This document shows positions 1,248 through 3,459 of a stretch of 5,288 nt of DNA, in pieces; the first letter of the stretch is position 1; every line of letters begins with the position of its first letter. The position numbers and the translations under genes were made by a program. The DNA is taken from IMG/VR virus record IMGVR_UViG_2534682162_000002; one strand, given 5' to 3'. The notes under the pieces are model-generated. The model was given only the letters and a program-made list of their open reading frames with translations, had not been told where the DNA came from and did not search any database. Source of the stretch: a virus (Duplodnaviria > Heunggongvirae > Uroviricota > Caudoviricetes).

Positions 1248-1595
1248 TCAACTCACAGGGATGGTTAACGAAAGTGGCTGGCCGGTGTCGTTGTGCTGAC
1301 CGGTTAACGTGACCGTCATTCGCCCGTCAAAACTGCGCGCCGTGGTGACGGATGACAGGGTGACGCGGGGTTCCCATTTCAGTACCGCCATGTAACAGGC
1401 GACCTTAATCTGCAACTCAAGCGCCGGGGTCTGCGGCTGGTCAATCATTGACGCCAGCAACGAGCCGTAATCACGACGCATCACCCGTGAGCCGACCGGT
1501 GTGCGCAGGATATCGCCGATACTCTGGCTGATATGCTCAAGGTCAGTGACAGTCAGGCCATCACTGCGATTCATTCCGAGATAACGCGCTGTCAT
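1248..1595 (-). CDS. W: Baseplate wedge protein W (T4 gp25-like)
   Basis: 115-aa ORF (MTARYLGMNRSDGLTVTDLEHISQSIGDIL...). GGGAG Shine-Dalgarno about 10 nt upstream. ATGA start/stop overlap with V at 1592..1595. Size and position match P2 gpW. Confidence 0.93.
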   Translation of the reverse strand: MTARYLGMNRSDGLTVTDLEHISQSIGDILRTPVGSRVMRRDYGSLLASMIDQPQTPALELQIKVACYMAVLKWEPRVTLSSVTTARSFDGRMTVTLTGQHNDTGQPLSLTIPVS

Positions 1596-2227
1596 AGAGG
1601 ACTCCCGGTTGTGCCGCCGCTGTCGCCGGGATGTTTATGGGTATGCAGTACCTTACCGTTTGATGAGAGTTCACCGCCGGTGTGTTCAATGTTGCCGCGC
1701 ATCGTCCCGCCCTTCTGCACTTCCAGCGTGCCGGTAATCAGCTTGTTTGTGCAGACCACCTCCGGTGTGTCCAGGGTGACGCGGGTTGATGCTTTCACCA
1801 TGACCACCGGCACCGTGGCAGTAACAGAATCAGAAGCCGTCACGCTGGCCGTTTTAATTCCGCTTACCGTGAGTGCACTGGTTTCGGGTTCATACTCAAT
1901 CACCGCCCCGTCAGGGAAACGGATATGCAGGGCATCCGCCGACGCAGACGGCGCAGGGTTATCGCCGGAATAAATCCCCGGCAGAACGAACGCCGTGTCG
2001 AGTTCACCGCCAACGGCCAGAATCAGCACCTGTTCCCCCACGGAAGGTGCCCACCATGTGCGCGAACGCCCGGCGCGATGGGTCAGCCACTGAAGCCAGT
2101 CGGTGCACATGCCGCCGGTCTGCACACGGCAGCGACCGGCGTTAAGGTCGGTTTCGACGATAATGCCGGTGCGTATCATGTTGCGCAGTGCGCGCGCGAG
2201 TTCCTGAATATTTGCGAGAGTGTTCAT
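1592..2227 (-). CDS. V: Baseplate central spike protein V
   Basis: 211-aa ORF (MNTLANIQELARALRNMIRTGIIVETDLNAG...). First gene after the only intergenic gap, as for the first gene of the P2 V operon. C-terminal HTHKH motif at residues 195-199. No obvious Shine-Dalgarno upstream of the ATG. Confidence 0.93.
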   Translation of the reverse strand: MNTLANIQELARALRNMIRTGIIVETDLNAGRCRVQTGGMCTDWLQWLTHRAGRSRTWWAPSVGEQVLILAVGGELDTAFVLPGIYSGDNPAPSASADALHIRFPDGAVIEYEPETSALTVSGIKTASVTASDSVTATVPVVMVKASTRVTLDTPEVVCTNKLITGTLEVQKGGTMRGNIEHTGGELSSNGKVLHTHKHPGDSGGTTGSPL

Positions 2228-2339
2228 AACGGGAAGGATGCCGCCGGGTCATACCGGCGGCAATGTGACGATGAGGTGTCAGGAATGGCACAACTAACGG
2301 TCGAGGTGAGCCAGGATAATCTCTTCAATCATCTGCACA
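2228..2339 (-). promoter_or_regulatory. Candidate late promoter region for the V-W-J-I operon (PV-like, Ogr-type activator dependent); exact elements not resolved
   Basis: In P2 the V operon has its own activator-dependent late promoter upstream of V, overlapping the end of S. Two TGT/ACA-type dyads are visible on the minus strand: a perfect TGT-N10-ACA at 2277..2292 and an imperfect TGT-N12-AGA at 2322..2339 inside the 3' end of S. The remembered consensus is TGT-N12-ACA centred near -55. I cannot say which, if either, is functional. Confidence 0.35.
2239..2262. other. GC-rich perfect inverted repeat (9-bp stem TGCCGCCGG / CCGGCGGCA, 6-nt loop GTCATA); function unassigned
   Basis: Read directly from the sequence at 2239..2262. 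It lies in the S-V gap, 11 nt upstream of the V ATG on the transcribed (minus) strand, and is followed in that direction by the pyrimidine-rich stretch UCCUUCCCGUU. Confidence 0.6.
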
Positions 2340-2746
2340 TCCTCACCGGTAAAGCCGAGCAGAGGACGCGCCGGATAATCAATTTTCTTACCGTCTTTCC
2401 GGGTTTCTTCCGACAGACCGAACTGATGCACACTGGCGATTTTCGGCGACTTCCCGCCGTAAAATTCCATTGATGCCTGTTCCGGGCTGGCGCGGATATG
2501 CAAAAAACGACTGGTGATAAGTTTCGCAAACATTTTTCGCTTAACACGACCGGTCTTTTTTCTGGCGCTCTGCTGCTGGCGTGGCGCGTAGGGTGTGCCG
2601 TCCGGGGCTTTCTGTGCCATCACCCGACGCTGCTGACTCTGCCGCAGACGCTTCGCCAGTTCGGCACTCAGTCGTCGACGCCCTGACGGTGACAGCGACT
2701 CAATCAGTCCGGTCAGCCGGTCTTCAAAACGCTTAAACTCATTCAT
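2294..2746 (-). CDS. S: Tail completion protein S
   Basis: 150-aa ORF (MNEFKRFEDRLTGLIESLSPSGRRRLSAELAKRL...). Start overlaps the R stop (ATGAATGA). Last gene before the intergenic gap, consistent with the end of the P2 O operon. Confidence 0.92.
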   Translation of the reverse strand: MNEFKRFEDRLTGLIESLSPSGRRRLSAELAKRLRQSQQRRVMAQKAPDGTPYAPRQQQSARKKTGRVKRKMFAKLITSRFLHIRASPEQASMEFYGGKSPKIASVHQFGLSEETRKDGKKIDYPARPLLGFTGEDVQMIEEIILAHLDR

Positions 2747-3206: not shown

Positions 3207-3459
3207 CGTTTTCGTCCTGACAGTGTTTAATCATTTTTACCTGGCTGGCACAGCGTGCCAGCGCGTTCTCAAGCTGCCGGATATCGGCACTTAAATCGCC
3301 GTTCGTCTCCGGGTCACTGCCCGGCATCGGGCAAAGACTCACTTTCGGGCAGGCGTTGGGGACAATCACTGGCGTCAGTGCAGGCCGGGCGCTGGTGCAA
3401 CCGGCGCACAGCATCAGGCAGGTCAGCACCGTACCAGCGGCGAAAATCTTCGTTTTCAT
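3169..3459 (-). CDS. lysC: LysC, Rz1-like outer-membrane spanin lipoprotein, embedded out of frame in lysB and extending into R
   Basis: 96-aa ORF (MKTKIFAAGTVLTCLMLCAGCTSARPALTPVIVPNACPKVSLCPMPGSDPE...). It has an N-terminal hydrophobic signal-like segment ending in a Cys-containing lipobox-like motif (LCAGC), then a Pro-rich region. It has its own GAGG Shine-Dalgarno about 10 nt upstream. It overlaps lysB by 146 nt and R by 38 nt. Confidence 0.8.
   Translation of the reverse strand: MKTKIFAAGTVLTCLMLCAGCTSARPALTPVIVPNACPKVSLCPMPGSDPETNGDLSADIRQLENALARCASQVKMIKHCQDENDAQTRQPAQGAD

Follow-up and report, generated by a model that had tools for sequence, protein, structure and literature searches.

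A perfect 9-bp, G/C-rich hairpin lies between the late genes S and V of a P2-like phage, and we put the probability at roughly 0.5 that it serves as an operon-end RNA hairpin, i.e. a weak terminator or pause site and/or a protector of the transcript's 3' end, that overlaps the core promoter of the next operon, pV. Elements of this type, terminator-like hairpins at an operon boundary, are familiar, and the gene organization is fairly ordinary for a phage; what sets this one apart is that its two arms fall on the -35 region and on the spacer next to the -10 of a promoter that is activator-dependent and probably leaderless. The window (the whole stretch of 5,288 nt that was analysed) is the late region of a P2-like (Peduovirus) phage, with its genes on the minus strand in the order X, Y, K, lysA, lysB/C, R, S, then V, W, J and I. 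It is 97% identical to Wphi, L-413C and fiAA91-ss, and lacks the orf30 insert that is present in P2. According to the P2 annotation, S is the last gene of the O operon. The features discussed below are as follows, with signed positions given relative to the V ATG:

1592..2227, minus strand: gene V, baseplate spike (ORF; Pfam PF04717 and PF18715)
2228..2238, minus strand: pyrimidine-rich tail TCCTTCCCGTT after the stem, with 3 T in its first 8 nt and no Shine-Dalgarno sequence
2235..2240, minus strand: putative -10-like hexamer CATCCT (-13 to -8), whose first two bases are the last two of the 3' arm
2239..2262, minus strand: GC-rich hairpin spanning -35 to -12 (exact arms, folding energy, kept in relatives); 5' arm TGCCGCCGG at 2262-2254, loop TATGAC at 2253-2248, 3' arm CCGGCGGCA at 2247-2239
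2258..2263, minus strand: putative -35-like hexamer TTGCCG (-36 to -31), placed by position only, overlapping the 5' arm
2275..2294, minus strand: putative late-activator site (Ogr/Delta/B type) GTTGTGCCATTCCTGACACC, placed by its position match to P2 sites
2294..2746, minus strand: gene S, tail completion and virion morphogenesis (ORF; Pfam PF05069, E = 6e-44; P2 annotation)

The identities that the first-pass annotation had given to S and V stand, PF05069 being found in the former and PF04717 plus PF18715 in the latter, and so does its description of the hairpin. Read on the plus strand, the element is TGCCGCCGG-GTCATA-CCGGCGGCA (arms 2239-2247 and 2254-2262), a perfect 9-bp inverted repeat as had been claimed: the 9-nt arms are 100% complementary around a 6-nt loop, and 8 of the 9 bp are G-C. 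Following the minus strand, 31 nt separate the S stop codon TAG (2296-2294) from the hairpin start at 2262, and a further 11 nt, TCCTTCCCGTT, separate its end at 2239 from the V ATG at 2227, which agrees with the spacings first reported (about 30 nt and 11 nt); 10 of these 11 nt are pyrimidines, matching the pyrimidine-rich stretch that had been described. The stem had been called very stable, and RNA folding bears this out: the predicted energy is -19.5 kcal/mol (z = -4.3), a value that none of 200 shuffles matches. The hairpin is found alike in the MFE and centroid structures when longer contexts are folded, and the entire 66-nt S-V spacer has a folding z of -3.4. Window-wide, a 9-bp repeat is unremarkable and the single-sequence statistics are modest: a perfect 9-bp inverted repeat with a loop of 3-12 nt occurs somewhere in 23% of dinucleotide shuffles of the 5.3-kb window, while the chance expectation within the 66-nt spacer is 0.004. 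Chance as an explanation of the hairpin is rejected on the comparative data given below, not on the single sequence. Two ORFs cross the hairpin, one of 182 aa antisense to V and S (1925-2473, plus strand) and a GTG-initiated one of 49 aa in the sense direction (2142-2291, minus strand); both are probably spurious.

The promoter that the hairpin overlaps can be located by comparison with P2, where record AF063097 annotates the pV activator site at 10239-10266 and has V-operon transcription begin at 10308, on the first base of the V coding sequence. Among the few leaderless E. coli genes, PMC4633059 cites Christie & Calendar 1985 for P2. When the window is aligned by its V ATG with the four P2 late promoters, taken at their annotated starts, its GTTGTG falls at -67 to -62, where the annotated activator sites of P2 pV, pF and pO have GTTGT(G). 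In the putative activator site GTTGTGCCATTCCTGACACC, the first base is the last one of the S stop codon. The activator dyad has been described as TGT-N12-ACA near -55, and the second half in the window reads ACC at N12 and ACA at N10; P2's own pV departs from the described form too, with CAA at N12. Downstream, TTGCCG and CATCCT are separated by a 17-bp spacer, and 7 nt follow CATCCT before the V ATG. Hexamers at matching distance from mapped P2 starts are CAATCT in pV and TAGCCT in pP. A weak putative core promoter, with a poor -35 and a partial -10, directly precedes the V-W-J-I late operon. A sigma-70 promoter scan reported no promoter anywhere in the window, TTGCCG-17-CATCCT being too weak for it, and no purine-rich motif that could serve as a Shine-Dalgarno sequence occurs at -18 to -4 before V. 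We predict from this layout that V transcription in this phage starts at the A of the ATG (2227) and yields a leaderless mRNA. Since the P2-like start geometry is kept, the hairpin would be promoter DNA at -35 to -12 and lie outside the V mRNA; because the predicted pV start is downstream of it, hairpin RNA would arise only from read-through of the upstream S/O-operon transcript. Neither the overlap with the pV core promoter nor the probable leaderless state of V was part of the first-pass annotation.

P2 pV, which is Ogr-dependent, resembles the window promoter in its flanking genes, in the 67 nt from GTTGT to ATG, in having no Shine-Dalgarno sequence and in placing a -10-like hexamer, CAATCT in P2 and CATCCT in the window, at 7 nt from the ATG. 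Unlike the window, it has no hairpin and no TTG at -35, and the arm sequences are present in none of the four P2 late promoters. The hairpin is not needed for pV, as shown by P2 pV doing without it. Across relatives the promoter layout is well kept: about 180 of 191 unique sequences have TTGT at -65/-66, GCATCCT is the dominant -10-like core, and an SD-like motif is absent from 164 of the 191. In the 108 unique window-type promoters, which align without gaps, the -35 TTG is nearly invariant and its distance to GGCAT is invariant. As an observation in its own right, V appears to be leaderless across the family and not only in P2, with a -10-like CATCCT 6-7 nt before the ATG and a fixed activator half-site. 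The phage 186 record (U32222, our locus L169) annotates B-dependent p12, pV and pJ, with none between O and orf32 (the V homologue); the O-orf32 spacer (L169 9660-9728) has the same layout, i.e. ATTGTGTG, TTGGCG, a spacer, CATTCT and ATG.

For the comparative analysis we assembled about 280 loci with V relatives of 70-100% protein identity, drawn from IMG/VR, from one genome per species and from annotated phages. The stem is kept across these related loci, with U.G pairs and some compensatory changes, so that the conservation proposed by the first-pass annotation as a check on the stem is indeed seen in P2-like phages. The arms are conserved and the 6-nt loop varies freely; a Klebsiella phage with diverged flanks, for example, has the same arms around a different loop. 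Of the two arms, the right varies much less. A first covariation test on 50 unique sequences gave values not above shuffles. With the 108 unique window-type promoters, three measures exceeded all 500 shuffles: cells paired (85.9% vs 83.5 +/- 0.4%), double-change cells (20 vs 9.5 +/- 2.6) and the covariation score (0.173 vs 0.149), although these are related sequences, for which the tool warns of false positives in just these three measures. Pair counts and pair-type counts in the same set were not above shuffles. One stem pair is C-G in 35, U.G in 41 and U-A in 12 of the 108 promoters, and the two loop-proximal pairs alternate between C-G and A-U; only on the sense (late-transcript) strand do the U.G intermediates form a pair. 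Double compensatory arm variants are TGCCGCTAA/CTAGCGGCA, TGCCGTCAT/CTGACGGCA, TGCCGCTCA/TGGGCGGCA and TGCCGTTC/GAACGGCA. The asymmetry between G.U and A.C was tried as a strand test, with U.G in 59 and C.A in 10 arm haplotypes at the four C-G positions; we give it no weight, since arm haplotypes are not independent of one another and the right arm varies less overall.

In other lineages the corresponding spacer, 66-69 nt long, contains different hairpins. The 186-type stem is GGAGCCGCGC-GAATTG-GCGCGGCTCC at about -48 to -23, with the -35 TTG in its loop; it shows one compensatory change from A-U to G-C and is followed by no T at all. As evidence the alignment of 186-type hairpins was set aside, having too little diversity and an internal C.A in its commonest variant. 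ENT90 and SEN4 carry hairpins of their own, and Kosakonia-type loci have a canonical terminator, CGGACA-GCTT-TGTCCG followed by TTTTT. In Kosakonia and its relatives (L096-L107 and L110; e.g. L101 446-1000) the gene that adjoins V upstream is a gpR homologue (PF06891) and not S, and in the spacer there is a perfect TGT-N12-ACA, with its right half formed by the stem of the canonical terminator. The presumed activator site of Fels-2 (L087, about 1127-1194) is an 8-bp perfect palindrome, TTGTGCCA-CTGC-TGGCACAA, again of the form TGT-N12-ACA, which would also form a hairpin in read-through RNA.

Insertion of non-essential genes ('morons') at the S-V junction is known (PMC6823313), and among our loci (L002-L299; window 2228-2293) the junction is a hot spot of very frequent insertion, some 280 loci falling into about 90 distinct clusters by upstream region. 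The contiguous S-hairpin-V junction occurs in 1024 of 5426 complete E. coli genomes. In P2 (AF063097) the entire spacer from the S stop to the V ATG has been swapped as one cassette, which brings together a terminator, an opposite-strand orf30 and a different, AT-rich pV. The P2 terminator of this cassette is bidirectional; 9397-9433 of AF063097, 30 nt after S, is annotated as 'putative rho-independent terminator for O operon'.

These insertions allow the hairpin to be compared with the direction of upstream transcription. We classed loci by what adjoins pV upstream (S, a co-directional insert or a divergent insert), counted unique promoters, and scored a hairpin as strong when 7 or more contiguous pairs, including 4 or more G-C pairs, lay within -56 to -6. 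The outcome was:

S adjacent: strong hairpin in 39/53
Co-directional insert: strong hairpin in 33/47
Divergent insert: strong hairpin in 11/54

Presence of the hairpin is associated with the upstream direction (Fisher OR 10, p = 1e-9), also when counted by distinct insert type (26/35 co-directional vs 10/38 divergent, p = 6e-5), and median composition-controlled fold z-scores over -55 to -5 are -2.95 for S-adjacent, -2.46 for co-directional and -0.6 for divergent loci. Ten of the 38 divergent-insert types still have a strong hairpin. Restricted to the window-type promoter family, the comparison shows a weak effect, with 56/71 co-directional vs 11/21 divergent (p = 0.025), and for co-directional inserts against divergent inserts p = 0.17. 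The global association arises largely because divergent inserts arrive with a different pV, the promoter being wholly different and AT-rich in 33 of the 54 divergent-insert loci; this AT-rich pV may be needed for the divergent promoter of the insert itself. Given the weak effect within the family, the strong global association should not be put down to relaxed selection alone. The orientation data are consistent with a role tied to incoming transcription and are not proof of one.

Of the properties of an intrinsic terminator, the element has a stable G/C-rich stem-loop and a place on the same strand downstream of the last gene of an operon. The U-tract 3' of the stem is missing: the tail TCCTTCCC has 3 T in 8, and a terminator scan that asks for at least 5 T in 8 did not list the hairpin. 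With the U-tract missing, the hairpin does not qualify as a canonical intrinsic terminator. Of the three roles suggested by the first-pass annotation, weak or partial termination of the O operon is the one that the evidence favours, albeit without the defining U-tract and without a place in the scan. Of 55 unique S-adjacent junctions, 5 have this stem with a tail of at least 5 T in 8. Over the first 60-100 nt after the stem, the C/G ratio is 1.8-1.9. Scanning for canonical terminators after S in the insert-carrying loci is uninformative, because P2's annotated terminator itself fails the T-run criterion, its T's lying inside the stem. A search of the window against Rfam 15 gave no relevant match, the sole hit being a chance miRNA match elsewhere (E = 0.39). 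The GenBank records of Wphi, L-413C, fiAA91-ss and 186 annotate no regulatory feature between S/O and V/orf32, and we found no paper on the hairpin in the accessible literature on P2-like late promoters, terminators, Ogr, orf30 and leaderless P2.

For termination, pausing, Rho action and 3' protection in this phage we infer the following sequence of events. RNA polymerase from pO would run past the S stop codon, and 31 nt after it the naked nascent RNA would fold into the 9-bp, almost all-G/C stem. The tail being UCCUUCCC and not a U-run, the hairpin would be at best a weak intrinsic terminator or a pause site. Polymerases that read through would enter V, where the AUG would be internal and have no ribosome-binding site. 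The downstream RNA of such transcripts is predicted to be untranslated, V having no Shine-Dalgarno sequence, and this C-rich read-through RNA, with its internal AUG out of reach of ribosomes, would likely be a Rho substrate for that reason. After Rho termination within V, the hairpin would form a stable 3' end that shields the O-operon mRNA from exonucleases. Either route would reduce traffic across pV. That promoter would use the same DNA, with TTGCCG as its -35, the 17-bp spacer, CATCCT as its -10 and a start at the A of the ATG, and its V mRNA would be leaderless and would not include the hairpin.

Besides P2 pV, three known arrangements are close to this one. The O-operon terminator of P2 is likewise a stable G/C-rich stem-loop on the transcribed strand that follows the last stop codon of the operon by about 30 nt; the window hairpin differs in having an unrelated sequence and no U-run (UCCUUCCC), and in overlapping the -35 and spacer of the next promoter. 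In phage 186, t45 with the B site and pJ (U32222 14058-14159) again sets an operon-end hairpin beside an activator-dependent late promoter, and the tail of t45 is pyrimidine-rich (TTCTTTCT) as in the window, though more T-rich (6 of 8). The order in 186 is terminator, activator site, promoter, and the core promoter is not overlapped, unlike in the window. t45 (L169 14055-14066) also shares the 12-mer ACCCGGCGGCAT with the 3' arm and flanking bases of the window hairpin (2249-2238), which could be coincidence or a shared module. Stem-loops that stabilize 3' ends, either of the REP type or trimmed back after Rho termination, are similar in being GC-rich, at an operon end and without a U-tract, with C-rich RNA after them. 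The window hairpin differs from these in not being a REP sequence and in matching no Rfam family.

Alternative explanations have to be weighed against an operon-end RNA hairpin. The arms might be kept purely as promoter DNA, i.e. as the -35 region (TTGCCGCC) and the sequence before the -10 (GGCGGCA|TCCT), with a complementarity that is incidental or hitch-hiking. Each arm does coincide in part with a predicted promoter element, and the distance from TTG to GGCAT is invariant; moreover, the pairing comes mostly from conservation of both arms and not from covariation (83.5% stays paired after shuffling), the 50-sequence covariation test was not significant, and the right arm is far more conserved than the left. 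However, the four P2 late promoters with annotated starts have neither arm and need no hairpin, and the conserved inner stem sits in the promoter spacer, which is normally free to vary, as the loop between the arms does. The double compensatory arm variants, together with the non-homologous hairpins that occupy the same spacer in other lineages, also argue against promoter function as the whole story, which we consider doubtful. A protein binding site was another suggestion of the first-pass annotation, and in its most specific form the 24-bp palindrome would be an operator at which a dimeric phage or host protein represses or times pV. A perfect palindrome over -35 to -12 is in the classic position for a repressor, and the spacing of the half-sites is invariant in the family. 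Against this stands the T.G (U.G in RNA) at one stem position in 41 of 108 unique relatives, which breaks the symmetry of the DNA and keeps the RNA pair, as well as the many arms that are shortened or asymmetric; in addition, 186-type and Kosakonia-type lineages have unrelated palindromes at shifted positions, the P2 pV lacks the site, and we know of no late-promoter repressor in P2-like phages. An operator is thus disfavoured, and we think it unlikely.

The remaining alternatives keep a role for the RNA. The hairpin had been suggested to stabilize V mRNA from its 5' end or to modulate V translation, which would call for a pV start upstream of it; it does lie 11 nt from the ATG, and the start in this phage type is a predicted one. 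The activator site, however, is fixed at -67 to -48 family-wide, whatever adjoins upstream, and a start upstream of the -35 would put it only about 20-30 nt away, as against about -55 in the annotated P2 promoters. There is no Shine-Dalgarno sequence between hairpin and ATG, the -10-like CATCCT is 6-7 nt before the ATG in the family, the V start of P2 is annotated at the ATG, and no sigma-70-like promoter was found in the window. With P2 V leaderless, the window geometry the same and the hairpin at -35 to -12, a 5'-UTR role seems very improbable to us, and the hairpin should not be labelled a 5'-UTR element in annotation. It could also be a processing site, at which RNase III or an RNase E-associated cut of read-through O-V transcripts separates the S and V cistrons or makes a V mRNA beginning with AUG. 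This would fit a stable stem in RNA that exists on read-through transcripts only, and a gene that, lacking a Shine-Dalgarno sequence, needs a 5'-terminal AUG. But at 9 bp the stem is short for RNase III, for which about 20 bp are usually required, and no sequence feature points to a cut exactly at the AUG, so we give processing just as slim a chance as the 5'-UTR role.

Returning to the operon-end hairpin, a stronger and more tentative version is that the 24 bp are a selected dual-coding module, serving in DNA as the -35 and spacer of pV and in RNA as a hairpin that ends or insulates the upstream operon; such a module would be kept under co-directional upstream transcription and lost or replaced with a divergent insert. 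We regard this as possible rather than probable. If it is true, translatable V RNAs, i.e. those with a 5'-terminal AUG, come from pV only. P2 V is a textbook leaderless E. coli mRNA, yet the mapped promoter comes from the atypical, orf30-carrying P2, and it is the window that shows the common arrangement. Should O-operon transcripts indeed be ended or insulated by the hairpin inside the pV core promoter, this would account for the separation of two late operons within 66 nt, and for the way in which a gene that needs a 5'-terminal AUG is guarded from useless read-through transcripts. It would be a simple case of one stretch of DNA acting as a promoter and, once transcribed, as a terminator-like structure.

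We also note two peculiarities of the window and of the locus set: (i) At 3244-3262, inside lysC and just upstream of R, the window has an 8-bp inverted repeat, GCTGGCAC / GTGCCAGC, with a 3-nt loop; by coordinate transfer this corresponds to the 'putative transcription attenuator; O operon' of P2 (AF063097 8399-8417). (ii) Enterobacterial P2-like prophage DNA was found in the assemblies of L092, L128 (Vagococcus sp. WN89Y) and L134 (Chryseobacterium sp. 18061), which are labelled Firmicute or Bacteroidete; V in these is 78-87% identical to that of the window, probably reflecting contamination or mislabelling.
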